Shown: in pieces, positions 19,439 to 47,166 of the stretch | How the letters are laid out: every line of letters starts with the position of its first letter | How positions within the stretch are numbered: the first letter of the stretch is position 1 | Assembly: GCA_037447435.1 (NCBI GenBank) | Contig: JBBIGR010000008.1 | Span: forward strand, 1-64,000 | Direction: 5' to 3' | Origin: Fibrobacteria bacterium | Lineage (GTDB): Bacteria; Fibrobacterota; Chitinivibrionia; Chitinivibrionales; FEN-1185 | Length of the DNA stretch: 64,000 bases | Position numbers and translations under genes: made by a program | Notes under the pieces: generated by a model | The model's input: the letters and a program-made list of their open reading frames with translations, nothing else | Databases searched by the model: none | What the model was told of the DNA's origin: nothing

Positions 19439-19723
19439 ATGGGAAATTATTTGACATGCGGGCAAGCCGCAAAGCGATTGCGGGTCTCCATTTCGACGTT
19501 AAAACGTTGGGTCGGCGAACCCGATTTACGCGTTGAAGAATTACGGAACAGGAACGGATGGCGCCTGTTCTCGGAAAAGGACCTTGACAAATTAAGGGAC
19601 TACAAAAAACAGATAAAACGGTCCGGAAAGCGGTTCAACGAGGTCACGCTTTTGCCTATTGATAAAATGTCCATGAAACAATCGGTAACCATGACAACAG
19701 GAAATATGCAGGCGATGCTATGA
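19439..19723 (+). CDS. Small MerR/excisionase (BldC-like) HTH DNA-binding protein
   Basis: YLTCGQAAKRLRVSISTLKRW...RNRNGWRLFSEKDL; GGAGG RBS before ATG 19439. Confidence 0.85.
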   Translation: MGNYLTCGQAAKRLRVSISTLKRWVGEPDLRVEELRNRNGWRLFSEKDLDKLRDYKKQIKRSGKRFNEVTLLPIDKMSMKQSVTMTTGNMQAML

Positions 19724-20889
19724 GTTTTTATCACTGCGCCAAAACAACCGTTCTTGTGCTGATTGCATGCGTATGCATTTTTGCACAGTCGGTAAAGAGA
19801 AATCGGGACGAAGGTACGACCTCGGTCCGAGCATCCAATGTTTTGGGCAACGGCAACATTTCGGCCTTCCTTTCGGGAGCGGCAGCGTATAGCAGGAACG
19901 GGTTTGCGCTTGCACCCATCGTCGGCGCATCGGTCGGCATTACCGATATAATGGAGCTGTACGGGCAACTGGTTCCGGTCACCGCAAAAGGCATAGGACC
20001 CATAGAAGCGCATTTGCAAATCACCACGCCGGCAAACGACAAACTCCGACTCTTGGGTCTGGCGCTTTCCGCTGATTTGTATTTGTCTACTGCGCAGGAC
20101 ACGATTTCTGGTACCAAAGACAAACCGGAGTATAATTCCTATCCGTCGGCAACGTTGCTTTTTGATGTGGATTGGCTGGCGTATAAAAAGTGGTTGCCGC
20201 TTAAAACGTATGTGCGCTTTTCGCTTGTCGACAATCCGGACGTTTTATACCGTTACGACCAAATAGCCCTGGCATCGTCGATCGAATGGAAGATGTTTCA
20301 GCATTGTCTTTTCGCTTCCGCAGGAATGGGTTTATATAAGGAAAAACAAACAAAAATACGCGCAGGCGATGACACGTACGGGCAAAAATACGTATGGGTA
20401 GAACCGGGCATGCGGTACCGATTGTTTCCGCAACTTTCCGTCCTTGCATCGGCAAAAGTCACGGTTTACCAGGATGTTGCGGGCAAAGACCCGCTTAAAC
20501 CGGAATTATTCAACGTTTCCCTGAAGCTTGAGGCCCCGGTTTTTTTTACCGAAACAAATACCGAGGCAATACGCACCCTCATTTTCATGGAACAAAAAAA
20601 GGAAAAGAAAGTAGATGCAATTGTTAAAACGACAAATCATGCAACCGACAAGAATCTTATGGAAGGAATAGATTTGCCTGAGCTTGGCCAAGACAGCCTT
20701 GAGTCTTTTGATTTTAATCAGGAGCGCCAGGATCTCATTAAACGCAGGGAAGAAACACAGAAAAAAATGGCCGATATAGAAAGGCTGTTTGTCGACATTG
20801 CCCGGGAGGATTCCTTGAAGGAATCAAATAATACGGGAAATACGATTTCGGCTCCGCCGAGAATACAACAGGACAGCAAGGTGAAATAA
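19720..20889 (+). CDS. Secreted protein, predicted outer-membrane beta-barrel with helical C-terminal extension
   Basis: Signal peptide; alternating hydrophobic/aromatic strands; charged C-terminal tail; paralog of the next gene. Confidence 0.55.
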   Translation: MSFYHCAKTTVLVLIACVCIFAQSVKRNRDEGTTSVRASNVLGNGNISAFLSGAAAYSRNGFALAPIVGASVGITDIMELYGQLVPVTAKGIGPIEAHLQITTPANDKLRLLGLALSADLYLSTAQDTISGTKDKPEYNSYPSATLLFDVDWLAYKKWLPLKTYVRFSLVDNPDVLYRYDQIALASSIEWKMFQHCLFASAGMGLYKEKQTKIRAGDDTYGQKYVWVEPGMRYRLFPQLSVLASAKVTVYQDVAGKDPLKPELFNVSLKLEAPVFFTETNTEAIRTLIFMEQKKEKKVDAIVKTTNHATDKNLMEGIDLPELGQDSLESFDFNQERQDLIKRREETQKKMADIERLFVDIAREDSLKESNNTGNTISAPPRIQQDSKVK

Positions 20890-22138: not shown

Positions 22139-25100
22139 ATGAAAAAAACAATGACAATACTTCGTTTCGTATGCACAAGCGGCCTGTTTGTGCTATTGTC
22201 ATTGCCTGCGATCGCCAAAACGCCTCAAAAAGACGACTGGCACATACGGGAAAACCTGGTGACGCGATTGTCGGGAGAATGGTATAAAATCAACGTTTTC
22301 AATACCGAATTATCAAGCGTTAAGGACATCCTCGACGATTTACGCGACATGGAATTGGTCTCCCCGTCGGTAACCAGGTTGAGCGACGATTCGCTCATCG
22401 CGTTTGATAAGAAAATAGAACGCTGCGAAAAAAAATATGCGGCATTGCAAAAACAAATCGGCACGCTGAAACTTCCCCTTTCCGATGCACTTGCGATTTT
22501 ACGGGAAATGGTCGTGGGCCAGCCGATTGAAGACATGTTCAGCGTTCTGGATAATGACGACCTTGCCCGTATTTCGGCGATGATGGACATCAAACACCAT
22601 GCGGACAGCCTGTGGATTTCGGTCGATACGCTTGTAAACGTACTCGGTGCAAAAATGAAACTGTCCCTGCCGCAAAAGGAGTCGGCGATAGAAGGGTTCG
22701 ATGCGGAATTCTTTCAGATATTACAGGCCAATCTCGGCCAGAAAGCGCAATGGTATTATCACGTACTCGATGTCATGAAAACCGCTTTGGCATTGCGGAA
22801 TAAGGAAAACGCGGTATCGGGAATGTATCCCGTGGAAATCCGAAGGGTCAAAAAATGTTTACAGGAAAGGAATCTGGAAAAAGCGGTCCGTTCGATAAAG
22901 TTCATGCAGGCCCGTTACGACGATAAATCGTGCCAGGCGGAACTCGCATTCCTGTTGGTCAAGGCTTATTTCGAGGTCGCAAATTACGACAGCGCGCTTG
23001 TCGCCTGCGCTGCGGTACACGATACGAGCCGTTTCGGCTCGGAGTTATTGCTGTACAAATTGCAAAGTCAATACCAGTTGGGTAAATACGATACGATTTG
23101 GAATGTCGGCCAGAAATTCCCGTTTTGGTTTTTGAAGGGCAAACAGCGGAATTGCGCGTTATGGATGGTGATGGAAAGCGGTTTGGCACTGAGAAAAACC
23201 GCAGGATTCGGCGATTTGGTTTCCCTCATTGAAAAGGATTCGTCGTATGCGATTCACGTATTGCATGCATTGGCCCGCTCGTATATTTTGCAAAACGATT
23301 TTCCAAACGCTCTACAAGTATTCGAAAGTGCCGATAAATTCAAACAACCCGCGGACATCGATAAAAATGCGTTTTTAGCGGTACGGCTTTGCGCGGCGCA
23401 AACACAATTTGAAAAAGGGAATTACCAAAAGTCCCTCACATCGTTTTTTTCGTTGCTCAACAGCGAAGACGAGACAATATTTTCTCAAGCGTTGTTCGGC
23501 ATTTCCTGGTGCTATATAAAACTCGGTATGTACCAGAAAGCGGAACTATCGCTTCGGAAACTGATAAACCAGTCGCCGAATTCTCCTCTTGCGGTAAAGG
23601 CGATGCTTGTCATGGGGCAACGAAAACTCAACAAAATCCAATTCGACTGGGACAAACTGACGTTCCTTGCGAATGCGGAATCGCGACTGTCGTTATTGAA
23701 AAAAGGCCTGACTGAAAAAACGGCGGACACTTTGCCCAAGGCGTCCCGCGAACGGGTAAAAGCCGGTATTGCCCGTGTCGACGAACTCCTTGCACGATTA
23801 AAAAACGAGAAACGCGAAACACCGGCAACGATTGCGGCAAATTACGATGAAATCACGCGGTTATCGAACCTTATCCAAAAAATGTACGCAACAGGGTCGT
23901 ATCAGGAAATAGCATTTTCAGAAAAACGGGAAGTCCTTTTGCACGTACTCGACTCTTTGACCCTCTGCGCGACCGGGACGCGACAAACATCGAATGCGGT
24001 TTCTTTTACCAATGCATCGCAATCGGTGGGCACGATAAAACAGCTCGTTTTTAAAAGCAAGGTTTTTGACGCGAAAGCACAAATAGACCGGTACCGATGG
24101 GAAAAAGAGAATGTCGATTGGCAAAAAGGCAATACTAAAAAGGAAATAGACCAAACCATTAAAATGTCGAGTACCGCAAAGGATTCTGCGGAACGCGTTA
24201 AAAGCGCAATGCGAATAGGGCAGCTTAATGCGACAATGGATTCTCTGGTCAAAGCCGGCGACAAAATCCACGAACGGTGGTATGGTCAATTGACAAAAAC
24301 ATGTGAGGAACTGACCAGTTTGCCGTTGGAAGTCCAGGATGAAATTTATTTACGGTATCACAACGCCGAATTGCATTATACCCAGGAAAACGAGCAGTAT
24401 GCGCAGGCATATTCCTTGTTCGAAGCCAATATGGCGCGATACGACAGCCTGATACGGTTGTTTAGGGACGGTAAAGAAATCCAAATGCCGCAAAAACCGG
24501 TCGAGCCGTCGCTATCGCACGATTCGAGCACCATGCAATTAGGGTACATCCTTGGAAAATATCCGCGGAGCGAATTGGATTATGCCGTACGTTACTCCCT
24601 TGCGTGGTGCTATAATGACAAAGGCAAATTCGACACCGCTGTCGCGATGATGGATTCGCTGACTCGGCTGTATCCTGATTGTCAATATGCCCCGCAGGCC
24701 TGGATGTACATCGGCGAGTACATGTTCGAGCACGGGAAACTGGACGGCGCGGTAAAAGCGTATCAGGCGGTACTGACCTATCCGGAAAGCGAATGGTTCG
24801 ACAAGGCGCTTTACAAACTGGCTTGGGCGCAGTACCGGATGTCGAACCCGGAAAAGGCCATCAGTTCCTTCCTTGCGCTCGTTGATTTGGGAGGTAAGAA
24901 TTCGTATGGGAAATCGCTTTTGGAGAAGGAATCGATAGACTACATTGCAATCAGTTTCAGCGAGACCGATGTGACCGGCGAACGGGGACTTGAACGCGCG
25001 ACCAATTTCGTGCAACGTTTCGGCGATATGGCGAAGGGTACCGAAATCCTGCACCGGCTTGCCACAATATATAAAGACCAGGGTCGGCTTGACATGGCGC

Positions 25101-25621
25101 AAAAAACGTATCGGACGCTGCTACGGATTTATCCGGAATATAAACAAAGCCCGCAAATCGAGAGCGAATTGCTGGCGGTCATCCAAAAAACCGAGGGGGC
25201 CGATCAGTCGAACTTCCGAAGTTACGATTTTTTTTCAAAGTATAATCGAAACGGCGAATGGGCAAAAGCTCAGTCTGACAAACGCGTGATAGCGGAAGCG
25301 GACAGTTTGGCCCAGAACCATTTATATACGGCCGCCCTCAGTTTCCATCAAATGGCATTGCAGAAAAATGATTCCGCTTTATACCAGACCGCAACAAAGC
25401 AATATGAAGACTTCATAACCACGTATCCGACGTCCGCTCGCGCTCCGGAATGTCATTACAATTTGGCGGAAATACAATTCTCTATTGGTAATTACCAGCG
25501 TGCGGCGGAAGAATATATGGCGGTTTCCAAAAGGTATGCCGATCCTAAGTATAAGGAAACGGCAGCGTGGAACGCCATTGTCGCCACGCAGAATTTATTG
25601 AAAAAGGAAGGAGCGCATTAA
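22139..25621 (+). CDS. Large periplasmic TPR protein (GltC/GltD-like)
   Basis: Signal peptide; many TPRs (ALFGISWCY, AWMYIGEYMF, ALYKLAWAQY, HYNLAEIQF). Confidence 0.8.
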   Translation: MKKTMTILRFVCTSGLFVLLSLPAIAKTPQKDDWHIRENLVTRLSGEWYKINVFNTELSSVKDILDDLRDMELVSPSVTRLSDDSLIAFDKKIERCEKKYAALQKQIGTLKLPLSDALAILREMVVGQPIEDMFSVLDNDDLARISAMMDIKHHADSLWISVDTLVNVLGAKMKLSLPQKESAIEGFDAEFFQILQANLGQKAQWYYHVLDVMKTALALRNKENAVSGMYPVEIRRVKKCLQERNLEKAVRSIKFMQARYDDKSCQAELAFLLVKAYFEVANYDSALVACAAVHDTSRFGSELLLYKLQSQYQLGKYDTIWNVGQKFPFWFLKGKQRNCALWMVMESGLALRKTAGFGDLVSLIEKDSSYAIHVLHALARSYILQNDFPNALQVFESADKFKQPADIDKNAFLAVRLCAAQTQFEKGNYQKSLTSFFSLLNSEDETIFSQALFGISWCYIKLGMYQKAELSLRKLINQSPNSPLAVKAMLVMGQRKLNKIQFDWDKLTFLANAESRLSLLKKGLTEKTADTLPKASRERVKAGIARVDELLARLKNEKRETPATIAANYDEITRLSNLIQKMYATGSYQEIAFSEKREVLLHVLDSLTLCATGTRQTSNAVSFTNASQSVGTIKQLVFKSKVFDAKAQIDRYRWEKENVDWQKGNTKKEIDQTIKMSSTAKDSAERVKSAMRIGQLNATMDSLVKAGDKIHERWYGQLTKTCEELTSLPLEVQDEIYLRYHNAELHYTQENEQYAQAYSLFEANMARYDSLIRLFRDGKEIQMPQKPVEPSLSHDSSTMQLGYILGKYPRSELDYAVRYSLAWCYNDKGKFDTAVAMMDSLTRLYPDCQYAPQAWMYIGEYMFEHGKLDGAVKAYQAVLTYPESEWFDKALYKLAWAQYRMSNPEKAISSFLALVDLGGKNSYGKSLLEKESIDYIAISFSETDVTGERGLERATNFVQRFGDMAKGTEILHRLATIYKDQGRLDMAQKTYRTLLRIYPEYKQSPQIESELLAVIQKTEGADQSNFRSYDFFSKYNRNGEWAKAQSDKRVIAEADSLAQNHLYTAALSFHQMALQKNDSALYQTATKQYEDFITTYPTSARAPECHYNLAEIQFSIGNYQRAAEEYMAVSKRYADPKYKETAAWNAIVATQNLLKKEGAH

Positions 25622-25622: not shown

Positions 25623-28600
25623 ATGACCGCACCGATGCGCTTTACAAGAATTGCGGCGGTTTTTTATATCGTCGGAATATTGGCGGCCGGTTTCGGGTGC
25701 GCGGGAAGAAAAGCATTGTCCGATAAAAAGGCGATCGAAGAATCCAGAAAAAAAGCATGCCTTGATTCGTTGCAGATCGCGAAAAACGATTCGTTGAAGT
25801 CGAACAGGCCGAAAAGCAAAGATGCCGAAGACCAGCAGGAAAAAATAAAAACCCTATCCCCGGCATCGCAACTCATGGTGAAGGCCTGCGACAATTATTT
25901 GACCATAAATCCCGAAAGTCAAAAATCCGCCGACGTGCTGCTTATTAAAGCTTCGTTGTTTTACAATAATAAACTGTTTGAAGAAGCGCGGACGTCGTAT
26001 AAAACGATTATCGAGAAATTTCCCAAAGATATTCATACCATCGAATCGGTGCGAATGATCGCGCAATCGTATTATGAAGAGAAAAAATTCGATGAGGCGC
26101 AGGCGTGGTATAGGAAACTGAAGGACAGGGCGGTTGAAGGAACCGACAAACAGGAAGCATTGGCCCGCATCGCCGAATCGATTTTTAAACTCGGCGAAAC
26201 CTATGAGTCCCAGGGCAAGTTCAAAGACGCGGCCGCGGAATACGAACGGGTATCGCTGGAGTTTCCGGACTCTAAAATCGCCGACGTCTCCCTGTTCAAC
26301 GCCGGGCTTGCAAATGAAAAAATGTCGGAGTGGTCACAGTCTATTCTCATGTATCAAAAACTCATGCAGAAATATCTGACATCGAAATTGGCCGCAAAAG
26401 CTCAATTTAGGACCGCAAAAAATTATGAGAAATTGCAACAATGGGACAATGCGGGCGAAACGTATTTGCGCGTGGTCGCGAACTTCGGGCAATCGGATTT
26501 GGCCTCGGTTTCACTGTATAATGCCGGGTTTTGCTTTGAAAATGCGAACAAGCTTCCAGTGGCGGCCGCAACGTTTGAAAAAATGGCCCAGTTATACCCG
26601 CAATCGGACGACGCGGCCGACGTTTTATTTCGCGCCGGCGAGATCTATGGAAAAATCAAGGATTGGTCCAGCGTGACCAGGGTAAACCAGGAGTTTATGA
26701 GACGGTTCGGCTCTGATGCCAACAGAGTCATCCAGGCGCAATGCATGGTCGGTGTCGCGATGTACATGCAAAACAGGCAATCCGAAGCCTTGGATCAATT
26801 GACTAAAGCGATATCGACTTTTTCTAAATTGAAGGAGCCGAGCACCACTAATAAATATTACGCGGCAAAGGCCGAATTTACTATCGGCGAAATCAATCAC
26901 GAGGCAATGACGGCAATTACGCTTACCCAACCCAAAGAAACATACAAAAAACAATTAAAGGCCAAATCGGACCTTTTGGACAATTGCATAGCAAATTACT
27001 CCAAAGTCATCAAGTACCAGATTTCCGAATGGACCACGCGCAGCATTTTTTCGATAGCCAAATCATATGAGGATTTTGCCGTTGCCATTTTCAAACAGCA
27101 GCGGCCCTCGTCTATGACGATGGACGAAAGAATCGCATTGGAATTAGGGATCGCCCAGGCCATGGAAGACTATATTGTCAATAAGGCGGCCCATTATTAT
27201 GAAGAGAATGTGAAGTTGGGAATTAAGGAAAAAATCGAAGATAAATATGTTTTGGACTCGAGACAAAAGCTCACTTCCCTGCCGTATTTGGCAGGAGAAA
27301 ATTATCTGGCGTTGGTGACCATTGCCCAGACAGCAACGACTTCCCAGAAGTTGGAGGGGTTCGCCCTCGTTGCAAAGAAACTGGAAACTCTGCAGAAAAT
27401 CGGGCCGTTCCAGGAACGTGCCATCACCTTGTTTCTCAAATGCCTTGAAGACGGCAGCAGATACAAGCAAGTCGACGAGTACTATACTAAAGCAAGTTCG
27501 CTCATAACGAAAACGTCCTGCACCGTGGGCCAGACCTATGCGGATATAGCGGCAACCGCACGGGAAGCGCCGATACCTTCCTCGTTCGATCCGTATGAGG
27601 CTTTTGTCTATAAAACGAAATTGCTCAAACAAATAGAGGCGTATGAAGACAAATCCTTGGAAAACTTTTTGCGAACGCTGAAAATCGCGGAAGCGTACAA
27701 GATAGAAGACGAATTCGTAAAACAAGTGAAACTGGCGCTCCCGAAATTATTGTTCGGCCGCGGACGATGTTACGATGTGTTGTGTGCAGGCGCATTTTCG
27801 GATCCGCCGTTTCCAAAGAACGTCAATGAGGCGGAAAAAGAAGAATACCGGGCGCGTTTTGAGGAAATCGCGATGCAATTCCAGGAAAACGCCTTTGATA
27901 TGTATAAGTCAATAATCGCTTATGCCAAACAGGATTATGCCCTCGGTGACTATGTGACCCATGCGTATGTGAGAATGTACCAAAAATATCCGAAAGAATA
28001 CGGCGTTAAAACCGAGAAAACCGAAACGAGGGTGATTACCAGCGGGCCCGAATGGAAATGCAGCGTCGATACGACGGGCAACTGGTTTGGGCTGGAATTT
28101 CCCGATTCGGGTTTCAAACAAGTTCACAAAGGATCTTTGGGGCAGGCGATTGCGATTTCAGGGTTTCCCGACAATAAAGTCCCGACGCCGATGTGGTGGG
28201 GTGAAGGCGCCGTGGGATCTGCGTCGTATCTTCCCGCCCAACAATGCGTGTTTCGGCGGATGTTTTTCAATTACGATCTGCTCAAGGACGCCACCTTATG
28301 GTTTGCCGCAGTCGACGATTACAAGGTTTTCTGCAATGAAAAGCAATTGATCGTTGATGAAAAAGACACCACCGACTGGACAAAAGCAAAAAAATGGAAT
28401 CTTATGGGGAAACTTCGCGAAGGGAAAAACGTATTGGCCGTTTACGTTAAAAACAATATCAAGCTCGGCAACGGATGTATGCCCTATTTATCCTATTCCG
28501 TGGTCACGAGCATGTACGTACCGCAGCCGCCCAAGGCCACGGCGCCGCTTGACCCGAAGCAGGTTTCCGAAGGAATATATCAATTCCCAACTATTGCAAA

Positions 28601-28643
28601 TTTCCCGATGCCGGCTGCCATCGGGAAGGCGCTCGGGAAATAA
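25623..28643 (+). CDS. TPR lipoprotein (like the C-terminal half of GltD) with C-terminal galactose-binding-like beta-sandwich
   Basis: Lipobox AGFG-C; TPR array (SLFNAG, SLYNAG, VLFRAG); tail WKCS...CVFRRMF...VDDYKVFCNE...LREGKNVLAVYVKN. Confidence 0.78.
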   Translation: MTAPMRFTRIAAVFYIVGILAAGFGCAGRKALSDKKAIEESRKKACLDSLQIAKNDSLKSNRPKSKDAEDQQEKIKTLSPASQLMVKACDNYLTINPESQKSADVLLIKASLFYNNKLFEEARTSYKTIIEKFPKDIHTIESVRMIAQSYYEEKKFDEAQAWYRKLKDRAVEGTDKQEALARIAESIFKLGETYESQGKFKDAAAEYERVSLEFPDSKIADVSLFNAGLANEKMSEWSQSILMYQKLMQKYLTSKLAAKAQFRTAKNYEKLQQWDNAGETYLRVVANFGQSDLASVSLYNAGFCFENANKLPVAAATFEKMAQLYPQSDDAADVLFRAGEIYGKIKDWSSVTRVNQEFMRRFGSDANRVIQAQCMVGVAMYMQNRQSEALDQLTKAISTFSKLKEPSTTNKYYAAKAEFTIGEINHEAMTAITLTQPKETYKKQLKAKSDLLDNCIANYSKVIKYQISEWTTRSIFSIAKSYEDFAVAIFKQQRPSSMTMDERIALELGIAQAMEDYIVNKAAHYYEENVKLGIKEKIEDKYVLDSRQKLTSLPYLAGENYLALVTIAQTATTSQKLEGFALVAKKLETLQKIGPFQERAITLFLKCLEDGSRYKQVDEYYTKASSLITKTSCTVGQTYADIAATAREAPIPSSFDPYEAFVYKTKLLKQIEAYEDKSLENFLRTLKIAEAYKIEDEFVKQVKLALPKLLFGRGRCYDVLCAGAFSDPPFPKNVNEAEKEEYRARFEEIAMQFQENAFDMYKSIIAYAKQDYALGDYVTHAYVRMYQKYPKEYGVKTEKTETRVITSGPEWKCSVDTTGNWFGLEFPDSGFKQVHKGSLGQAIAISGFPDNKVPTPMWWGEGAVGSASYLPAQQCVFRRMFFNYDLLKDATLWFAAVDDYKVFCNEKQLIVDEKDTTDWTKAKKWNLMGKLREGKNVLAVYVKNNIKLGNGCMPYLSYSVVTSMYVPQPPKATAPLDPKQVSEGIYQFPTIANFPMPAAIGKALGK

Positions 28644-28652
28644 GAGGCACTT

Positions 28653-28964
28653 ATGGAAAAACAAAATTTCAAAATCGCGGTTATAGCGCTTGTTCTTTTT
28701 TTCCACGGTATGGCCGCGGCCGCAAAAACGTTGCCGCAGAAGACGGATTCGCTCAATGCCGAAACAAATGCCGCAGGCTATCGAATCGACAAGCCCGGAA
28801 CGATCACCTTTACCGTCGGCGTAAAGATAAAGGGAAAAGTCGAAAAGCCGCAGGTCATGATATTTTTGCCCAAGGAAAAACCGTTTTTCAGCAAAGCGAC
28901 CTTTTCCTATTCTTTCATGGATGACATTATGAAGCCAATGCCATTGACGCCTATTGAAAAATGA
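28653..28964 (+). CDS. Small secreted protein, GltF/CglF-like
   Basis: Signal peptide; IKGKVEKPQ...SFMDDI pattern; lies between the TPR genes and the motor genes. Confidence 0.55.
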   Translation: MEKQNFKIAVIALVLFFHGMAAAAKTLPQKTDSLNAETNAAGYRIDKPGTITFTVGVKIKGKVEKPQVMIFLPKEKPFFSKATFSYSFMDDIMKPMPLTPIEK

Positions 28965-28996
28965 ACGGTAATTTTATTTGTAAGATATTGAAAATA

Positions 28997-29025
28997 TTGA
29001 CTCAATTGGGCTTGTAATGTAGACT
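28997..29025 (+). promoter_or_regulatory. Internal sigma70-type promoter upstream of the motor genes
   Basis: TTGACT-17 bp-TAGACT in a ~157-bp gap; AAGGAG RBS downstream. Confidence 0.5.
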
Positions 29026-29121
29026 ATAAATTGCCGGACGCTTGCAATGGCCAAATAAGTACGGAATTGCTGAAAATTATAAAACTTTTTTGATAAAGCA
29101 ATAGCTACAAAGGAGATCAGA

Positions 29122-29766
29122 ATGGACCAATTTCTTCAGACAATTGCCACGTTTTTCCGAGACGGCGGTTTCTGGATGTATCCGATTGTCGCGACCTCCG
29201 CATTCGCGCTCGCGGTCGTCATCGAACGCGCTTTTTATTATTATATTCGGTCCAGGATAAACGCCAAGGCATTACTGACGCAAGTGACGCGATTGGTACG
29301 GAACGGAGAAACTGAAAAAGCAAGGCAATTATGCTCCAAAATGAAGACGCCGCTGGCCATGATCGTCGAAAGCGCATTATGGCATTACGTCCAAAACGAA
29401 TCGGACCAGGAAATCCAGAACGCGGTCGACGAGATTGCCTTGAGGGAATTACCGAAAATACAGAAGAGAACGCATTACCTTTCCCTTTTTGCAAACCTTG
29501 CGACATTGCTCGGGCTGTTGGGTACTATTTTCGGACTTCAGTCGCAGTTCGCGGCACTTGCCACGGCGGATCCTTCACAAAAAGCAGCCATGTTGGCCGG
29601 TGGTATCGCCATAGCGCTGAATACGACCGCGTTCGGAATTTTGGTCGCGGTCATCTGTATGGTCGCGTTCTCGGTTTTAGGGTCAAAAGCCAATACGATC
29701 ATCGAAGAAATCGATGAAAGTTCGGTCCGATTGCTTAATTTCCTTTTTTCACAGCGCAGGCAGTAG
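29122..29766 (+). CDS. MotA/TolQ/ExbB proton channel (AglR-like)
   Basis: GGFWMYPI, ATLLGLLGTIFGL, GIAIALNTTAFG. Confidence 0.93.
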   Translation: MDQFLQTIATFFRDGGFWMYPIVATSAFALAVVIERAFYYYIRSRINAKALLTQVTRLVRNGETEKARQLCSKMKTPLAMIVESALWHYVQNESDQEIQNAVDEIALRELPKIQKRTHYLSLFANLATLLGLLGTIFGLQSQFAALATADPSQKAAMLAGGIAIALNTTAFGILVAVICMVAFSVLGSKANTIIEEIDESSVRLLNFLFSQRRQ

Positions 29767-30305: not shown

Positions 30306-30628
30306 GCTTGAAGCTGAAAATGAAAAAACATAATGATATCCCGATCCTGGTTCTGTCGGGTGACGCAGTTGGGCAGGATGTCAGCAAAGTGGCGGAAAAA
30401 ATAGAAAGCCTGATTAAAAGCGGCGCAATGAAGATAGCAATTGACTGTGAAGAGCTCGATTCGATAGACAGCCACGGCCTCGGCATGTTCGTTTTTTCAT
30501 GGAAACTGATGGAAGCGCAAAAACGCAAGCTCGTTTTCCTCAGTCCCAGCGAGTTCATTAGAAATCTGTTTGAAGGCGCGAACCTTCACCGGGTTTTCAC
30601 CATTGTCGCATCGGTCGAGGAATTATGA
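30302..30628 (+). CDS. STAS domain protein (anti-sigma factor antagonist type)
   Basis: LSGD, IAIDCEELDSIDSHGLG, IRNLFEGANLHRVF; ATGA overlaps with both neighbours. Confidence 0.9.
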   Translation: MSLKLKMKKHNDIPILVLSGDAVGQDVSKVAEKIESLIKSGAMKIAIDCEELDSIDSHGLGMFVFSWKLMEAQKRKLVFLSPSEFIRNLFEGANLHRVFTIVASVEEL

Positions 30629-36250: not shown

Positions 36251-37117
36251 ATGGAAAATGCCATTGATGTTATAGTGCCGACGTATGGCCGCTCTTCTTG
36301 CATACAACAATGCGTCGACTCGATTTTGCCGCAACTTGAGGGCAAAGACAATCTTTTCATTATTTGGCAAGGAAAACAAAAGCCAAACATCCGGGAATCG
36401 AAGCAATGCCGTTTGCTTCATTCGTCTCCTCCGAATCTCCCTGTGGCGCGCAATAAAGGCGTTTTGGCCGGTACATCGGATATCATACTGTTTTTTGATG
36501 ATGATGTTGTCGTTAATCCCGGCGTTTTACGGTGTCATAGAAATGCATACATCGATATGTCTATCGGCGCAATCGCCGGCAAGATACTAGACCCCCTTTT
36601 TCCGCAAGGTCAGACAAGACCCGCGTCGTTCGACGAAAAAACAGGTAACCTTGTACAGAGTTTCAATGTCGATCAAAGCCAGTTTTCCATAAGCCTCATG
36701 GGCGCACACATGTCGTTCAAACGGGAGGCATTATTACAAATCGGAAAATTCGACCCCAATTTTACCCGTAATGCGTTGTGGGAAGAAGTGGATGTTGCGT
36801 TCAGGTTACGGCAAAGCGGATATACGATATGGTACTGTGCCGAGGCCGTCGTTAACCACCGTCGCCAATTAGACGGCGGCTGTCGTTCGGATTCGGCGCG
36901 ACAGTATTTGTTTCATCAATTTGCCAATACCGCTTATTTTTCTGCAAGACACGCAAACAGAAAGTATGTAAAATCGTGGCTTCAGTTTTGGATGTATCGA
37001 TTGGAATATGAAACCAGAGGGCACGGTGTCCTGAAGCATTCGCCCGCTAAAGTTGCGTCTGCACTTTTAGGGGCGTTTTGCGGTTTGCTGCGGTATTGGA
37101 TAAAAGGCCGAACATGA
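36251..37117 (+). CDS. GT2 glycosyltransferase
   Basis: VIVPTYGR, ARNKG, FFDDDV, EEVDVAFR. Confidence 0.9.
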   Translation: MENAIDVIVPTYGRSSCIQQCVDSILPQLEGKDNLFIIWQGKQKPNIRESKQCRLLHSSPPNLPVARNKGVLAGTSDIILFFDDDVVVNPGVLRCHRNAYIDMSIGAIAGKILDPLFPQGQTRPASFDEKTGNLVQSFNVDQSQFSISLMGAHMSFKREALLQIGKFDPNFTRNALWEEVDVAFRLRQSGYTIWYCAEAVVNHRRQLDGGCRSDSARQYLFHQFANTAYFSARHANRKYVKSWLQFWMYRLEYETRGHGVLKHSPAKVASALLGAFCGLLRYWIKGRT

Positions 37118-38214
37118 AAATCGCATGGCTTGCACCTATTGACAAAAAATGCGGCATTGCATTTTATGCGAAACACTACGTGGATGTTCTGAAAGGTAAA
37201 GTGGCAATCGTTTTCTGCGATCCGGTTGAATATGTGGAAGACAAAAGGTCGTTTGAAATAAAAATATCCGGTTGCGATTGCGTCCATATTCAATATGAGA
37301 CGTCGTTATTTGCAATGCACAATACTAATTTTTATAGAAAACTGTGCGACGGCATCCGATGCAAAAAAATAGTTACGGTCCATGAAATTTATAAAAACAT
37401 TCCGGCTGTTTTTCCCAAAGAGAGAATAACGGGTTTTGCACCGATTAAAAAAATGAAGGAATTTATATGGGACAAACGCCACCCACATTGGGCATGGTAT
37501 GCAAACCACGAAAAACGGGGTTTCTTTTCGGACAGGATTATCGTGCATTCCCGGTTTCAAAAGGATATACTGCATGACCGTGGGATTTCCGCGGAACGAA
37601 TTTCGGTAATACCGCATCCTATCGCATTGCGAAGTAAAGCAATATCCTCGCAGAAGAACGACGACGTCCTGGTCCTCGGGGCGACCGGTTTTATTAGCGA
37701 CGCGTACGATTACGATCTTCTTATAAAAGCATTACTCCGATTGCCCTGTCCGTGGAAATTTATTTGGATCGGCGGGATACGGAAACCCGGGAACGACGAC
37801 GTCCTTGCCTTATTGCTTAATAAGATTAAATCGCACAATATACAAGACAAATTTATCGTTACCGGCTGGGTGGAAAATGAAGAACGGGAGGCCCGGCTTT
37901 CGGAATTGTCGATCTATTGCGCTTTGTTTAAGGACAGGAGCTCGTCGGGGAGTTTAAGCGATGCGATAGCGGGCGGGAAAACGATTATCGCGACCAGAAT
38001 TCAGTTGACAGAGGAATTGAATGAAACCGCGGGTTTGTTGGAGCTTGTTGACCGAGATCCGAACGATATTGCAAAAACCATCATGGCAATAAATGACGAT
38101 GCAACATTGACAGAGAAGCGTAAAGAAGCCGTTGATACGTATGCCCGGCAACACAGTTACGACGCCTGTGCCGAGAAAACAATCGAGTTGTACAAAAAAG
38201 AAATCTTACGATGA
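37114..38214 (+). CDS. GT4-like glycosyltransferase
   Basis: CGIAFYA, HIQYE, VTVHE, SSSGSLSDAIAGGK; start moved to ATG 37114. Confidence 0.85.
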   Translation: MKIAWLAPIDKKCGIAFYAKHYVDVLKGKVAIVFCDPVEYVEDKRSFEIKISGCDCVHIQYETSLFAMHNTNFYRKLCDGIRCKKIVTVHEIYKNIPAVFPKERITGFAPIKKMKEFIWDKRHPHWAWYANHEKRGFFSDRIIVHSRFQKDILHDRGISAERISVIPHPIALRSKAISSQKNDDVLVLGATGFISDAYDYDLLIKALLRLPCPWKFIWIGGIRKPGNDDVLALLLNKIKSHNIQDKFIVTGWVENEEREARLSELSIYCALFKDRSSSGSLSDAIAGGKTIIATRIQLTEELNETAGLLELVDRDPNDIAKTIMAINDDATLTEKRKEAVDTYARQHSYDACAEKTIELYKKEILR

Positions 38215-39296
38215 GAATTTTATGGGACATGAGATTGTATTCGTACGGCTATGGAACCCGCGGTTGCGGCGTATGGACAAAAGCAATGGCTTTATCCATA
38301 AAAGAATCGGAAACAGATAAAAAGCACGAGATAATCATATGGGGAAATAAGAAACTGGTGCCGCATGAAATTGCTTGTTTGGCAAACAAATGGGTACAGT
38401 ATGAAAAGGGGAGTTGGAAAAGCGACCTTTTTATTATTCCCTATCTTGTATTGCGATATCGCGTAAATATCTTTCATTATTGGATGGCGCTGGGCCCGAT
38501 TTTTAAAATCGGCATGGGTTTATTTCATCCGAATTGCAAAGTCTGTCTCTGCGTATATGATTTGGGGGTCGAGTATTTATCGGCTAACGGCCATTGCGCA
38601 CAAACGCGAGGGTCGGTTTACTGGAAAGTTCAAAAGCGATTGCTTAAGGGGCGCTCGAAAATAATTGCGATATCGGAAAAAACAAAACAAGAACTTTTCG
38701 CCTGGACCAAGGGTAAGAAGCAAAGTACGGTATTGTATATGCCGTTGCCCGATACCGGAAAAAGCGTTTCTGAATTGATTAGTGCAAAAAATGATTCGCG
38801 GTGCAATTCGTTCGTGACGCTCGGGGGCGCCTTGCATAAAAACGTTTCTTTGGTGATCGAAGCCTTTGAACTTTTCCGAAAAGAAAACCCCTGCTTTAGT
38901 CTCCATATATGCGGGACAGTCGAGAAAGAAGAGTTGCCGCAGACGATAGGAAAAACCGTTTTCTTTGAAACCTATTCGACCTATGAATACTATTTAAAAA
39001 ATGCCGCCGCGATTATTGTGGCTTCGACGTATGAGGGCCTCGGAATACCGTTGTTGGAAGCAATGAGGTATTCGTGCCCGCTTATTGCCTCGGATATATC
39101 TGTGTTTCATGAAAGCTGCGGGGACTTCGCGAGGTTTATGAATCCGCGCGATGCGCAAAGCATAGCGGAGGCAATGCAGGACATCGTATTAGCGCCGCAG
39201 AAATGGGCCGACAATTCGGCGCGTGCAATGAACAGATATAGGAAAATGAGCGAAAACGCAGGAAAACAATGGTTGACAACGTACGCCAATTTATAA
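38211..39296 (+). CDS. GT4 glycosyltransferase
   Basis: HKN, YEGLGIPLLEAM, ASDISVFHE. Confidence 0.9.
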   Translation: MRILWDMRLYSYGYGTRGCGVWTKAMALSIKESETDKKHEIIIWGNKKLVPHEIACLANKWVQYEKGSWKSDLFIIPYLVLRYRVNIFHYWMALGPIFKIGMGLFHPNCKVCLCVYDLGVEYLSANGHCAQTRGSVYWKVQKRLLKGRSKIIAISEKTKQELFAWTKGKKQSTVLYMPLPDTGKSVSELISAKNDSRCNSFVTLGGALHKNVSLVIEAFELFRKENPCFSLHICGTVEKEELPQTIGKTVFFETYSTYEYYLKNAAAIIVASTYEGLGIPLLEAMRYSCPLIASDISVFHESCGDFARFMNPRDAQSIAEAMQDIVLAPQKWADNSARAMNRYRKMSENAGKQWLTTYANL

Positions 39297-39302
39297 AGTA
39301 CT

Positions 39303-41060
39303 ATGCTGTTATCAATTGTCATAATAACGTATAACCGGAGCACTCCATTGCGCAAGGCCGTCGAGTCGGTATCGGCGGCATTGGACCGTAAAGGGGAATG
39401 CGAGGTCATCGTCGTCGACGATGCTTCCGGCTCGGATCACCGGAGCAAAAATGAAAACCTTTGCCGTGAATATTCTTGTACGTTACTAGTGCACGATTCC
39501 AGAAGGGGAGCGGCGGCGTCACGAAATACCGCAATAGCCCAAAGCAATGGAAAATGGATAGCGTTTTTGGACGATGACGTGATTGCAGACAAACAATGGT
39601 ATTTTCAAGCGAGAAAAAGAATCATGTCGGCCTCGGATGCCGTGGCAGGCATTGAGGGAAAAGTGGTGCCCTTGGGAAAAGGGTTGTGGGACAAGGAAGT
39701 GGAAAATAAAAATGGAAAGCTGTATCTCACCTGCAATTGCATTTACAACGCAGCAATACTAAAAAAAGAAAACGGATTTGATCAACGATTTAACGGAAAA
39801 CACCCGTCGTGTGAAGATCATGAACTTGCCGCACGGATGTTACGATGGGGCGATATTCCGTTCGACGGCTCAATAACCGTGTACCATACGGCACGATCGG
39901 TTTCCCTTATTGCATATGTGCAAAATTCTGTTTCGCGGATGAAAGAGCAGCTCGAGGCAGAGTTTTACTTTTACATGAAGCAACGCGACCGATATCATTT
40001 GTTTCGGCATCGGACTTCTTTTTTCGGAACCCTGAAAGCGATTTGTTTAAAACATATCGTGACAACGTTTAAAAGAAGACTTCTTCCGGATATTATCGGG
40101 CATCCTCTGCAAAGTTTGAGCTTGTTTGCCTCCTGTATAATTGAGCAATTGACCGCATGGGTATTGTTACCGGTATTCGTCGGGCGATTTTTTAAGGGAC
40201 GCGAACGGTATTTTACCAACGATATTGATTTGCAAAGAACAAGCAGTGTTTGGAATTTTAAAAAATCCGTTACAACGGAAAACCTGGTTTTTAAACGATC
40301 GGTTGTAAAATCGATGCTATTCCCCATAACGAATACTCCCGGGTATTCGGCCAGGTCTTTGTTACGAGTGATGCGGAAAAAAATCGATGCTGAAACGGAA
40401 TGCAAATGTTACATTCGTATCGACGACGTGTTTTTAGAAAAACGGGAATTGGTCGTCGGGCTATGCAAAGTATTTCAAAGGTTCAAAGCGCCGTTTTGCG
40501 CAGCCGTGCCCGGCCAGTATCTAACCGACGAACGATATGCGGACCTCTGTTCGTTGATAATTGATAGCGGCGGAACAATCGCGTTGCATGGGTTTTCGCA
40601 TCACGGCATGTTCGGACCCTATGTCAGTGAGTTTTTGCAAATGCAATTCGGCGAATTTGCCCGGAAAGTCGAAAATGTATTCCGTTGTACGTCCGACGAA
40701 TGGAAACCGAAAATACTTATTCCGCCTTTTAACGCCATTTCGCGGTATCATATCAAGGAAGCGGCAAAATATTTTAAAGTAATTTGCGGCGGCCCGGAAA
40801 CCGCACGATTTACAGATGGTTGCTTTGGTCCCGTTGCGCTAACGTACGGAACCTGGTATTTCCCGTCGTTTTATCCGTTTTATTCAAATGCGAAAACGGT
40901 CAATCGGACAAAAGCGTTGAGCTTTTTAAAAAAAACAAAAGGCATCGCCTGCGTGACCTTGCATATGGAGCATGAGGCGCAAAACAACTATGCAGACATA
41001 TCGGAACTATTGCAAAGCAATTCGCCGATCATATTTTCCTGGGAGAGCTATCTATCATGA
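39303..41060 (+). CDS. GT2 glycosyltransferase fused to a polysaccharide deacetylase-like (DUF2334-type) domain
   Basis: IITYNR, VDDAS, FLDDD; C-terminal IRIDDV, ALHGFSH, IPPFN. Confidence 0.82.
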   Translation: MLLSIVIITYNRSTPLRKAVESVSAALDRKGECEVIVVDDASGSDHRSKNENLCREYSCTLLVHDSRRGAAASRNTAIAQSNGKWIAFLDDDVIADKQWYFQARKRIMSASDAVAGIEGKVVPLGKGLWDKEVENKNGKLYLTCNCIYNAAILKKENGFDQRFNGKHPSCEDHELAARMLRWGDIPFDGSITVYHTARSVSLIAYVQNSVSRMKEQLEAEFYFYMKQRDRYHLFRHRTSFFGTLKAICLKHIVTTFKRRLLPDIIGHPLQSLSLFASCIIEQLTAWVLLPVFVGRFFKGRERYFTNDIDLQRTSSVWNFKKSVTTENLVFKRSVVKSMLFPITNTPGYSARSLLRVMRKKIDAETECKCYIRIDDVFLEKRELVVGLCKVFQRFKAPFCAAVPGQYLTDERYADLCSLIIDSGGTIALHGFSHHGMFGPYVSEFLQMQFGEFARKVENVFRCTSDEWKPKILIPPFNAISRYHIKEAAKYFKVICGGPETARFTDGCFGPVALTYGTWYFPSFYPFYSNAKTVNRTKALSFLKKTKGIACVTLHMEHEAQNNYADISELLQSNSPIIFSWESYLS

Positions 41061-41426
41061 TCATATGGTTTGCGGCTGCAATCCCCGAATCCTCCGTAGG
41101 AGGTGTGGCGCACTCGATATCGCAATTGGCAAACGGACTTTCCCGGCTCGGCTATACAACCCGCGGTTGGGAGGAGAAAGCTGTTCAGAGGGTGCGTCGT
41201 ATTTGCGTCGGCGATTCCCGCGAGCACGGGATTTATCGTTAGCAACGTCAACGGAATCGTGCTGGGTGCGGAAAATTTAAATGAAGATTCCGCAAAGATG
41301 CTTGAGACGATTCGTTCGGTAGAAACATGCAGACGATTAGGGCGGAACGCCTATGACTTTTCTTCACGACCATCGTGGGGCAGGGCGGCAAAAAGGCTTG
41401 AAAGAACGTTATGCAAAATACTGTAA
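41057..41426 (+). pseudogene. Internally deleted, frameshifted GT4 remnant
   Basis: One frame gives a GT4 N-terminus (VGGVAHSISQLANGLSRLGY); another gives a GT4 C-terminus (GCVVFASAIP...NGIVL...LGRNAY...SW); the middle is missing. Confidence 0.7.
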
Positions 41427-44916: not shown

Positions 44917-46007
44917 TCGGTTTCCCCCAGAAGATCCTTGTCACGCTTGATTTTCCTCCCGCCCACGGAGGAATACAGCGTTTCTTACATGACTTGGTTG
45001 TTCACACCTATGCGCAAACCGATATGGTTCTAGTTGGTGCTGGAGCCGAAACAAAACAAACGCCGGGCACATATCCTTGTCCGATAATATACGTTTCAAG
45101 TGTGTTATCGACCTATGATGAAAAATTCTCAATTTTTCCTTTATGTATAAAGTTAATAAGATTGCTTACTGCTGATTCTGGAAATGCGACCATATTGTGC
45201 GGCAATATATTTGCAGCTTGTGCGGCTTTTCCACTCAAAATGGTATTTGGTAAATCCTATTCGGTGTATGTTTACGGGACGGAATTGCTCCCCTTACGAA
45301 ATAAACTGTCGATTAAGGCCTTGTTTCTTCGGAGCGTTTTGTCACATGCGGAAACGATCATTTCCATAAGCGATTATACGACGGAATTGGTAAAAAAAAT
45401 TCTTCCCAATGCCACTGTTCAAAAGCAAACGCCTAAGATCTCTTTGGAAAAGTACCCCTTTGCAAAGGATGAAATGCAAGCGAGGTCGGTAAAAAATGAA
45501 AATGCGTTTAAAATTCTCAGCGTTGGCCGGTTGGTAAAGCATAAAGGACACGACTGTCTTATAAAAGCTGTTTCCGACTTGCCAAAAGCAATTAATTGGA
45601 ACCTTGTTATTGTGGGAAGTGGACCGCAATTGAATTCACTGAAGCTCTTGGCTGCAAAATATAACATCCAAAACAAGGTAGAATTCAGGACGGATTTATC
45701 CGATGAAGAGGTATGTAATACCTATCGTGAATCTTCGATATTTGTGTTTCCTTCAGTTTCAAATGGAGGTACGGAAGGGTTTGGTATTGTCCTTTTAGAA
45801 GCCATGGCGCATTTTCTGCCCATAATCGCAAGCGATACCGGGGCTGTACGGGAGGTTCTTGATAACGGAAAATGCGGTATGTTAATCCCGCCGGGCGATA
45901 GCGGCTTTTTATGCAAAGCGATATGTCGCCTTTTCCAAGAGCCTGAGTTGCGCCATTTTTATGCAACAGCCGCAAATCAACGGGTCATTGAAAATTATGC
46001 ATGGTAA
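44913..46007 (+). CDS. GT4 glycosyltransferase (PimB-like)
   Basis: DFPPAHGGIQ, VGRLVKHKG, EGFGIVLLEAM. Confidence 0.92.
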   Translation: MIGFPQKILVTLDFPPAHGGIQRFLHDLVVHTYAQTDMVLVGAGAETKQTPGTYPCPIIYVSSVLSTYDEKFSIFPLCIKLIRLLTADSGNATILCGNIFAACAAFPLKMVFGKSYSVYVYGTELLPLRNKLSIKALFLRSVLSHAETIISISDYTTELVKKILPNATVQKQTPKISLEKYPFAKDEMQARSVKNENAFKILSVGRLVKHKGHDCLIKAVSDLPKAINWNLVIVGSGPQLNSLKLLAAKYNIQNKVEFRTDLSDEEVCNTYRESSIFVFPSVSNGGTEGFGIVLLEAMAHFLPIIASDTGAVREVLDNGKCGMLIPPGDSGFLCKAICRLFQEPELRHFYATAANQRVIENYAW

Positions 46008-47166
46008 AAATCGTCCGACCATATTATTTATTAATCATTGGGCGCACACGATGGGCGGTGCGGAACATTCACTTCTTGACATGCTTTCTTTTATCGCCTC
46101 CGAAGCGGAATGTCATTTGGTCACCGTGGAGCCGGGTATACTTGTTGAAAAAGCCGAACAATCGGGTGTCAAGTGTCATATTGTGCCGTGCCCATTGAAA
46201 ACACAGAAGCTTCTGCGCAAAAATATTATTCGTACGATGCTCACTTCTCTTCCGGATATTCTTGCCTATATCCGGTACGTCTTTTCCATGCGATTGCTCG
46301 TACGGCATATAAAGCCGCAGGTGATCCATGCAAATGTTCCAAAGTCGCACATTACACTTTTTCTCCTGCAGAAATTTGGCTATCGAAAAACTTGTTGTTT
46401 TCATATTCGCGAAATATTCGAACGGGATTCGTTGCCATGGAAAATATACCGATTGCTGTTTTCAAAAAAGCAAAGCGTTGTTTTAGCGATTTCGAACCAC
46501 GTATTCGACATGTTGCCTGCGAAAATGCAAAAAGCCGCGCGCGTGGTGTATAATGGGGTATTTATCCGGCCGGCATGGCCGCTTCGGACGCGGCACAATT
46601 TGCAACTAAAACTATGTTATGTCGGCCGGATCGTTCCTTGGAAAGGATGCGAGTATCTTGTCGAGGTGGTTGCATATATTAAACGACATAATCCGTCAGC
46701 CAAAGTGTCTTTGTCGCTTATCGGCGATACCGCTTATTGGCCGCAAGGCTATCGTGACGAACTGAGGGCATTAATACAAAGGAGCAATCTTGAAGAAGCC
46801 TGCTTTTTATTTCCAAACACAACAGATGTTGATTCAGCCTATAGTACGCATCATGTGTTTGTCAATGCCTCGCATCAAGAACCGTTTGGACGCTCCATTG
46901 CCGAAGCCCAGGGAGCCGGCCTGCCGGTAATAGCATTCGAATCGGGTGCTCTTTCCGAAATCGTTGAAAACGGTGAAACAGGATATTTGGTTCCTTATGG
47001 CGATGTTCCCGCAATGGCCACAATGGTTTTAAAGTTATATTGTGATCCTGAATTATGTGAATCTCTTGGGGCCAATGGACGCTTGCGGGCATTGCGTTTA
47101 TTCAACCGGGATATTCAACTCCCGTTGCTTTATAAAACAATTATTGGTCAAGTAAAGAACTACTGA
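45997..47166 (+). CDS. GT4 glycosyltransferase
   Basis: GGAEHSL, VGRIVPWKG, EPFGRSIAEA; start moved to ATG 45997. Confidence 0.92.
   Translation: MHGKNRPTILFINHWAHTMGGAEHSLLDMLSFIASEAECHLVTVEPGILVEKAEQSGVKCHIVPCPLKTQKLLRKNIIRTMLTSLPDILAYIRYVFSMRLLVRHIKPQVIHANVPKSHITLFLLQKFGYRKTCCFHIREIFERDSLPWKIYRLLFSKKQSVVLAISNHVFDMLPAKMQKAARVVYNGVFIRPAWPLRTRHNLQLKLCYVGRIVPWKGCEYLVEVVAYIKRHNPSAKVSLSLIGDTAYWPQGYRDELRALIQRSNLEEACFLFPNTTDVDSAYSTHHVFVNASHQEPFGRSIAEAQGAGLPVIAFESGALSEIVENGETGYLVPYGDVPAMATMVLKLYCDPELCESLGANGRLRALRLFNRDIQLPLLYKTIIGQVKNY

Follow-up and report, generated by a model that had tools for sequence, protein, structure and literature searches.

The window analysed here is a 64,000-nucleotide stretch at the start of contig JBBIGR010000008.1 (C8) in the 5.0 Mb, 99.6% complete genome of a Fibrobacteria bacterium (assembly GCA_037447435.1). 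Between positions 19439 and 47166 it carries a cluster that likely encodes an Agl/Glt-like trans-envelope motor, directly adjoined by genes for Wza/Wzc-type polysaccharide export and glycan synthesis. The linkage of motor and glycan genes is real and conserved. In a survey of 296 Fibrobacterota genomes, with orthologs called by clear score gaps, all 70 carriers of the gltG-like transducer gene of this motor also have the cognate wza gene, and the two are adjacent in 67 of them (66 of 69 if the unpublished genome G253, one row in each marker count, is set aside). The adjacency is far above chance and phylum-wide rather than unique to this genome, an eventuality that an earlier reading of the DNA (the sequence-only reading) had raised against its own proposal. 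The parts of the system, their conservation and their co-inheritance are documented here; as to their meaning, the balance of evidence tips modestly towards an Agl/Glt-paralog machine co-inherited with one Wzx/Wzy-type pathway, in which ion flow lays the glycan made by that pathway as a surface coat, much as Agl-Nfs does.

Layout of the locus and its inheritance in Fibrobacterota

Every long open reading frame (ORF) between 19439 and 47166 lies on the + strand. The gene order (helix-turn-helix (HTH) regulator, two outer-membrane barrels, two tetratricopeptide repeat (TPR) proteins, small secreted protein, MotA-like, ExbD, STAS, ExbD, GltG-type TonB, wza, wzc, methyltransferase, then glycosyltransferases (GTs) with a Wzy-like gene) and the coordinates of the sequence-only reading were borne out by the ORF listing and by Pfam/NCBIfam domain scans. 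In two other respects its description had to be amended: eight GTs (three GT2, five GT4-type) were counted instead of about seven, and the run is probably not one operon.

19225..19253, +, promoter P1, sigma70-type match (11/12) from a promoter scan; like sites lie 5′ of many orthologous HTH genes
19259..19304, +, conserved direct-repeat operator with a 12-bp period, directly 3′ of P1, from a motif search; predicted HTH site
19439..19723, +, stand-alone MerR-like winged HTH protein of about 94 amino acids (aa), BldC/RacA-like (MerR_1 E 1.9e-8; PDB RacA E 2e-4)
19720..20889, +, predicted outer-membrane barrel B1, paralog of B2 by cross-matches, with an N-terminal hydrophobic segment
20889..22115, +, outer-membrane barrel B2, predicted 12-stranded, with a C-terminal helical tail (model pLDDT 81.6)
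22139..25621, +, TPR1, secreted TPR protein of 1160 aa, its C-terminal part GltD-family TPR-related (domain scan)
25623..28643, +, TPR2, predicted lipoprotein of 1006 aa, TPR array plus C-terminal sugar-binding-type domain at about residues 820-960 (profiles)
28653..28964, +, small secreted protein of 103 aa with an invariant short core (ortholog alignment), in the GltF/CglF position
28997..29025, +, promoter P2, sigma70-type match before motA, from a promoter scan and orthologous regions
29122..29766, +, MotA/TolQ/ExbB-family subunit (AglR-like) with three membrane helices (MotA_ExbB domain match)
29781..30305, +, ExbD-like subunit 1, membrane Asp39 conserved (domain match, alignment)
30302..30628, +, STAS/anti-sigma-antagonist-like protein, optional (TIGR00377 over cut-off); likely ATG start, the ORF scan starting at 30254
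30625..31143, +, ExbD-like subunit 2, membrane Asp34 conserved (domain match, alignment)
31173..32243, +, GltG-type TonB-like transducer with short head, one membrane helix, linker and AgmX/PglI C-terminal domain (NF033768)
32262..33158, +, Wza/OPX protein with signal peptide lacking a lipoprotein Cys, export domain, two SLBB domains and a C-terminal hydrophobic helix (Poly_export and SLBB)
33158..35356, +, Wzc co-polymerase with tyrosine kinase domain and tyrosine cluster (domain scans)
35357..36232, +, SAM methyltransferase, optional (domain match; in 8 of 20 loci of the order)
36251..41060, +, four GTs: GT2, GT4, GT4, and GT2 fused to a DUF2334 domain (domain matches; orthologs follow wzc in relatives)
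41051..41414, +, remnant of an internally deleted GT gene, both ends present, with an intact homolog on contig C28
41411..47166, +, GT2, GT4, Wzy-like polymerase (43453-44916), GT4, GT4 (domain matches)

The gap between the gltG-like gene and wza is 18 bp in the window and has a median of 29 bp over 43 junctions; a terminator scan of the window lists nothing within it, in agreement with the sequence-only reading. Two larger gaps occur in the run, of 157 bp 5′ of motA and of 350 bp at 41061-41410. Promoters of the P2 type were found in 26 of 35 motA upstream regions, whereas 200 shuffles gave 1.3 on average and never more than 5, and it is because of this second, conserved promoter that the run probably comprises two transcription units. 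The position of P2 is also the point at which the cassette splits in other classes, where HTH-B1-B2-TPR1-TPR2-small protein forms one locus and motA-exbD-exbD-gltG-wza-wzc another. No holder of RNA for 28600-35400 was listed.

Four markers were followed through the 296 genomes: the gltG-like gene was found in 70, wza in 75, barrel B2 in 75 and wzy in 72. Together they occur in 78 genomes, 65 of which have all four and 73 at least three, while the other 218 genomes have none; kin genomes are not independent in these counts, and many of the genomes with an incomplete set are fragmented assemblies. Of the 30 best loci in a set of 60 relatives, 28, the window included, have wza behind the orthologous gltG-like gene. 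Twenty genomes of the same order, picked for long contigs among the 34 other carriers in this set, were compared gene by gene: HTH-to-gltG is intact in all 20 and wza-wzc comes next in 19, and the genes upstream of the HTH gene match those of the window in only one, neighbours outside the cassette thus not being conserved.

Families f15, f17, f19 and f20 carry the barrel/TPR unit at a locus of its own. In the single-contig genome G274, B2 lies 360 kb from wza, and only 8 of 42 genomes of the order have wzy no more than 30 kb from wza, fragmentation inflating the unlinked share. As B2 and wzy track wza even when unlinked, co-occurrence is not a matter of linkage alone. Flagellin is present in 140 of the 296 genomes, namely in all 78 carriers and in 62 of the 218 non-carriers; with 62 flagellated genomes devoid of all four markers, the cassette can evidently go as a block while flagella stay. 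Four same-genus genomes (G001, G002, G004, G005) have neither cassette nor flagellin, and several non-carrier genera encode unusually long flagellin-family ORFs (600-860 aa).

The window-type cluster was not found in the 151 genomes of family f13, which we take to be Fibrobacteraceae, and the sole f16 genome (G245, 77% complete) has wza only. The glycan cluster of f15 and f17 ends with a heptosyltransferase-like (GT9) gene, and with mltG in f15 genome G244. Outside the phylum, a B2 profile retrieved 120 clusters; of 10 looked up, one was labelled Elusimicrobiota and the others carried no taxon. The best 120 of 383 small-protein homologs bear names only from Fibrobacterota or are hypothetical, and look-alikes from Calditrichota and Zixibacteria in the Atlas were not confirmed by alignment or context. 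A plasmid search yielded one Vibrio cluster with a MotA-like gene, wza being absent from its 18.6 kb. Located on Vibrio alginolyticus plasmid NZ_CP013488.1, this cluster contains a barrel, small genes, a MotA-like gene, two ExbD-sized genes and a TonB-sized gene, and adjoins genes for a large Ig-domain protein and a transglutaminase-like peptidase.

Motor, scaffold and kinship with Agl/Glt machines

The motor shares with the Agl/Glt core one MotA-like protein, two different ExbD-like subunits with a membrane Asp, and a GltG-type transducer with membrane helix, linker and AgmX/PglI tail. Threonines T128, T135, T168 and T169 of the MotA-like subunit are conserved and presumably form, with the ExbD Asp, the channel residues, with roles as in ExbB/ExbD. 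The transducer tail scores 92.9 bits with NF033768 (cut-off 40) as against 39.3 bits with the TonB C-terminal model, so that an ordinary TonB is not the better match. The full GltG model recognises the tail only (E 7.5e-24), far below its cut-off; about 35 cytoplasmic residues precede the membrane helix, and no FHA match was found in this protein. The profile NF033759 was discarded as it proved to be TraA. The STAS gene between the two exbD genes occurs in 15 of the 20 compared genomes.

Better-known energisers fit less well. Scores with TolQ (58.7 bits, cut-off 221), TolR (25.5, cut-off 127.3) and ExbB (39.1, cut-off 206.2) are low, the run has neither tolB nor pal, and no TonB-dependent receptor occurs in the run or in the 20 loci of the order. 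The layout of one MotA and two ExbD proteins, counted by the sequence-only reading as part of the AglRQS-Glt layout, is present yet not diagnostic, because a TonB-receptor-linked system in the same genome has the same layout. That system (ExbB-ExbD-ExbD-TonB plus receptor, contig C2) includes the closest MotA paralog (45% identity) and two ExbD genes, but is completed by a canonical TonB and a receptor; the window cluster, which lacks a receptor, has an AgmX/PglI tail and a TPR scaffold instead. There (L151:5933-12841), as in genome G003 (L213), a gene for a 521-aa OPX/SLBB protein lies directly 5′ of the receptor cluster. A quick tree of 64 MotA-family proteins, which contained no Myxococcus sequence, placed the 22 window-type rows in one group (support 84), nested with core-type and receptor-linked rows in a clade of 49 (support 95) that excludes E. 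coli TolQ and ExbB. The driving ion need not be H+ in every carrier: Chitinispirillum relies on sodium pumps (PMC4814513), suggesting that the motor may use Na+. The machine, proton-driven in the sequence-only reading, may be sodium-driven in alkaliphilic carriers.

Further outward, the two TPR proteins align to the two halves of the f13 GltD-family protein, the C-terminal part of TPR1 and the N-terminal part of TPR2 matching the 1288-aa core-cluster TPR protein at E 1.6e-17 and E 8.7e-19, respectively. Since that protein is the ortholog of Fisuc_1893, a listed GltD homologue, this core component is present on indirect evidence. A lipobox-like motif is present in 17 of 21 TPR2 proteins. A profile of the last 210 residues of TPR2, built from 23 orthologs, matches the accessory domain of rhamnosidase PDB 3W5M (E 1e-21), in a region that we take to be its CBM67 module, as well as sugar-binding domains of GH2 enzymes (E 1e-6) and lectins (E 1e-5); Bac_rhamnosid_N was found in 5 of 22 TPR2 orthologs. 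From these profile matches TPR2 is predicted to end in a sugar-binding-type domain.

No Pfam or NCBIfam family passes for B1 or B2, and B2 has no sequence relative in PDB. The fold of the B2 model is closest to FapF (Z 18.7, rmsd 3.8, 239 aligned residues; top in two fold searches), followed by COG4313 (Z 18.4, rmsd 4.0, 237 aligned) and KdgM (Z 17.8). With all three inside 1 Z unit, the cargo cannot be read from the fold; the fold-match lists contain no GltA/B/H or Wzi row. The CglF profile matched 1 of 10 other small-protein orthologs (E 0.056) and not the small protein of the window, and a co-fold of the GltG-like tail with the small protein scored 0.18, the mark being 0.32. Of the profile comparisons with Glt parts, a kind of test suggested by the sequence-only reading, that of the AgmX/PglI tail passes, and those of CglF and GltE do not.

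According to Luciano 2011, the core complex of aglRQS with gltC, D, E and G is represented in Fibrobacter succinogenes by Fisuc_1892-1897, a cluster including proteins of 746, 1292, 212, 164 and 308 aa; the core genes are described there as not sufficient for motility, and the role of such clusters outside myxobacteria as ‘unknown’ (PMC3169522). Two f13 genomes carry a cluster of 746/745, 1288/1281, 212/206, 163/164 and 307/334 aa that matches the published one in gene order and protein lengths. Its best match in the present genome is on contig C39 and not in the window, and by these comparisons the window cluster is an undescribed paralog, not an ortholog, of the Fibrobacter core complex. Homologous TPR, MotA-like, ExbD-like and GltG-like proteins are clustered in both (PMC3169522), but the window adds barrels, HTH, STAS and a glycan pathway, and a gltC-like gene was not identified: the 746-aa GltC-like protein of the f13 cluster has no listed match in the window at E 1e-12.

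Agl-Nfs of Myxococcus resembles the window system in its MotA-like and two ExbD-like proteins, its GltG/NfsG-type transducer, TPR proteins, small protein and barrels, and in having a Wza/Wzc-type polymer as the likely cargo (PMC3858216). It differs in that the Agl motor is shared with gliding, whereas the window motor is dedicated and adjoins wza-wzc, and in that ExoA is short and works with an 18-stranded barrel (PMC9601211), whereas the Wza of the window is full length with a pore helix. The one-polypeptide Wzc, the FapF-like modelled barrel, the putative sugar-binding-type domain of TPR2, and the HTH and STAS genes also set the window apart. With the Agl-Glt gliding machine (PMC11761067) the system shares an inner-membrane motor, a periplasmic TPR transducer and paired outer-membrane barrels, but its GltG-like protein has no FHA domain; GltI-, GltJ-, GltK- and CglB-like genes are absent from the locus, the rest of the genome not having been searched for CglB or GltI. 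By layout and homology the system is likely Agl/Glt-like, with its accessory parts as putative members.

Further Glt-like pieces occur in this genome on contigs C39, C4, C24, C6, C35 and C1, including lone AgmX/PglI-tail proteins. The core-type cluster on C39 (L153) is followed by genes for a PopA-like porin and a cNMP/HEAT protein, C4 (L152) has a Glt-like cluster with two MotA-like genes, and C24 (L154) encodes a 1935-aa TPR protein related to both window TPR proteins, with the same sugar-binding-type domain. On C1 (L150:7062-11106) a lone AgmX/PglI-tail gene directly precedes genes for an initiating sugar transferase and a Wzi-like protein, a second case of a GltG-like gene beside glycan genes.

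Glycan pathway and regulation

Of a Wzx/Wzy-type pathway, the run contains the OPX protein, Wzc, GTs and a Wzy-like protein, the latter matching Wzy_C (O-antigen ligase family) with 28.5 bits, below the cut-off of 31.7. A flippase and an initiating sugar transferase are absent from the run, with candidates on other contigs: a flippase with two GTs on C10, which shares 37% identity with the flippase beside wzc in other classes, and several initiating transferases, one of them on C1. In other classes both genes follow wzc. The C-terminal helix of Wza is conserved in 28 aligned sequences. Barrels partnered with short OPX proteins have 18 strands (PMC9601211); with its pore helix retained, the present Wza should not need such a partner, and the B2 model has 12 strands. 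The GTs after wzc are orthologous between genomes, and GTs and Wzy are orthologous across classes, unlike in variable capsule loci, which suggests a constrained glycan. Group 1 capsule-type Wza-Wzc pathways likewise have the OPX C-terminal helix, Wzc kinase, GTs, Wzy-like protein and flippase (here on C10), but in the present system Wza has no lipoprotein Cys, and the enzymes are orthologous across the phylum and tied to a motor and barrel/TPR unit. A second exporter on C2 (L155:2306-8057) consists of a short 224-aa OPX protein, a ParA-like ATPase, an AAA_22 ATPase and a 1100-aa Wzc-like protein.

The HTH gene is the first of the module in all 20 compared genomes. Over 40 HTH upstream regions, which include close kin, the operator motif has an information of 24.6, as against 11.0-11.7 in three single-base shuffles, and matches itself at lag 12 with a z of 14. 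The operator is the best motif site in this genome (33.7, next 20.0). A shared regulon was sought with the operator matrix without success: no score exceeded 3.6 in the upstream regions of 29 motA genes, those of 5 detached wza genes all scored below 0, and the C10 and C1 satellite loci are missing among the 40 best genome-wide matches. From this analysis the HTH protein likely autoregulates the barrel/TPR unit locally through the direct-repeat operator; it is predicted to control that unit only, with motor and exporter sharing P2. BldC-type MerR-like proteins, which bind direct repeats, are similarly short, lack an effector domain and have tandem repeats adjoining a promoter (PMC5859096), but the window HTH has one strong predicted genomic site rather than a global regulon.

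A possible further member of the system is a 136-aa ORF without family match (48191-48601), which follows the GT tail in convergent orientation; 4 of 20 relatives have it there as well (59-78% identity). Elsewhere the window encodes two tandem GH26 enzymes with weak type IX secretion system (T9SS) sorting-tail matches (4612-8623), a stand-alone SWIB/MDM2-domain protein of 109 aa (11988-12317), and a 1149-aa fusion of a glutamate-synthase-small-subunit-like flavoprotein with a group A [FeFe] hydrogenase (12511-15960; GC about 54% vs 44-48% around it). A 2110-aa SprA/Sov T9SS translocon is encoded at 57050-63382, with an FGE-sulfatase-domain protein upstream.

A candidate machine for laying a surface glycan

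The favoured explanation, a machine laying the glycan as a surface coat, may be pictured as follows. Going by their families, the GTs would build a lipid-linked repeat unit, a flippase encoded elsewhere in the genome would move it outward, and the Wzy-like protein and Wzc would polymerise it, Wza passing the polymer through its own helical pore. The ion channel would consist of five MotA-like subunits surrounding the two different ExbD-like ones and would pull the GltG-like protein, whose TonB-like tail might engage a scaffold that TPR1, TPR2 and the small protein form on the two barrels. Through its sugar-binding-type domain, TPR2 could contact the polymer or lipid-linked intermediates, and repeated strokes would move or anchor strands away from few export sites. 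There is a precedent in Agl-Nfs, which moves Wza-exported Exo strands off few fixed Wza sites to give a tight spore coat (PMC3858216; Wartel 2013).

Candidate stages for such a coat are sessile cells on insoluble substrate and resting cysts. Cyst formation by rounding up is described for Chitinispirillum and strain ANBcel5 (PMC4814513, PMC11700989), and HTH-to-gltG is present at a Chitinispirillum sp. locus (L119), making the cyst coat a candidate; the promoters of the cassette, however, resemble housekeeping ones. It is tempting to go further and regard the system as a self-contained, phylum-ancient glycan-laying motor, with the scaffold catching the Wza-exported polymer by its own sugar-binding domain in a walk round the cell that a dedicated H+ or Na+ channel would drive, possibly to build the Chitinispirillum cyst wall; this version is tentative, and we would not bet on it.

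Several observations weigh against a coat-laying machine. The gltG-wza junction is broken in genomes G018, G028 and G295, and in genera g1 and g63 loss of the cassette coincides with loss of flagellin; together with the flagellation of all 78 carriers, this joint loss means that some co-loss may reflect a change of lifestyle. The sister group of the window-type MotA (support 80) is that of TonB-receptor-linked systems. The GltE profile reaches TPR2 only at E 0.086, ranked below many generic TPR proteins, and the TPR2 sugar-binding domain profile matches 3 of 8 f17 proteins and 0 of 3 f15 proteins, TPR2 of f15 being about 355 aa long and devoid of the domain. In f15 genomes G239, G242 and G244 (88, 79 and 98% complete), wza, wzy and B2 are present and a cognate gltG-like gene was not found, nor was any of six MotA-family genes of G244 placed in the tree the cognate one. 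The glycan can thus apparently be made without the motor; either f15 relies on a motor borrowed from another system, in the manner of Nfs with AglRQS, or glycan synthesis does not need the motor. Lastly, a class III-type PHA synthase had no match in this genome or five others, leaving a tie to lipid cysts unsupported.

Among other explanations, the motor and GltG-like protein might act on the Wza-Wzc conduit, or gate the barrels, and so energise polymer crossing. Across classes no junction is better conserved than motor-gltG-wza-wzc, which persists in 15 of 19 genomes from other classes even though the barrel/TPR unit is found elsewhere, and the sharing of P2 and the missing lipoprotein anchor of Wza would also fit. 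We nevertheless consider energised export unlikely, in view of the pore helix kept by Wza, the kinase kept by Wzc, the wza-wzc-flippase-wzy set retained by f15 without the motor, and a B2 model of 12 strands where short-OPX partner barrels have 18 (PMC9601211).

Somewhat more doubtful is a machine for surface motility or adhesion that moves an adhesion complex, with the polysaccharide as slime or glue on insoluble substrate. Kinship to Agl-Glt and the attachment of cultured relatives to chitin or cellulose particles (PMC4814513, PMC11700989) speak for it. Gliding is made less likely by the absence of an FHA domain, with some 35 cytoplasmic residues in its place on the GltG-like protein, and of adhesin genes (GltI-, GltJ-, GltK- or CglB-like) in the locus, and the core genes do not suffice for motility (Luciano 2011, PMC3169522); flagellin accompanies the cassette in 78 of 78 carriers, and swimming, not gliding, is reported for relatives (PMC4814513, PMC11700989). 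The slime-based motility offered by the sequence-only reading accordingly has no direct support, and its interpretation as a whole is supported in part.

It is improbable, too, that the barrels export or display a protein in FapF-like manner, either the small protein or some adhesin, which the glycan pathway would decorate or tether. The best fold match of B2 is indeed the peptide transporter FapF, and the Wzy-like protein matches the O-antigen ligase family, which also includes sugar-to-protein transferases; but COG4313 and the oligosaccharide porin KdgM come within 1 Z unit of FapF, and Wza with Wzc indicate a polymer. Least credible of all is that no mechanistic link exists, an ordinary TonB-like energiser and a capsule pathway merely sharing promoters and being co-lost on lifestyle change, as the MotA sister group, the g1 and g63 losses and f15 would allow, since no TonB-dependent receptor is encoded at the locus, none of the four markers occurs in 62 flagellated genomes, the barrel and wzy genes go with wza even at separate loci, conservation of neighbours does not extend beyond the cassette, and TPR2 carries a predicted sugar-binding-type domain.

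New here are this domain of TPR2, the 12-stranded FapF-like modelled barrel, the 12-bp direct-repeat operator and the paralog status of the cluster. The literature searched yielded no report that connects a Glt-type cluster with wza in Fibrobacterota; further supplements of PMC3169522 and Figure S9 of PMC3858216 may show such layouts. With a candidate cargo that can be named, a putative sugar-binding domain and lineages in which the system was lost naturally, the function of a non-myxobacterial Agl/Glt-type machine becomes directly testable. If the glycan-laying motor is indeed phylum-ancient, polysaccharide handling would be an old job of Agl/Glt-type machines outside myxobacteria, and spore-coat assembly and gliding later uses. 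No dedicated ion-driven partner is known to be required for Wza-Wzc export. Either Nfs-like spreading or energised export would be new for a non-myxobacterial polymer, and the system suggests that anaerobes degrading cellulose and chitin share a conserved surface glycan.

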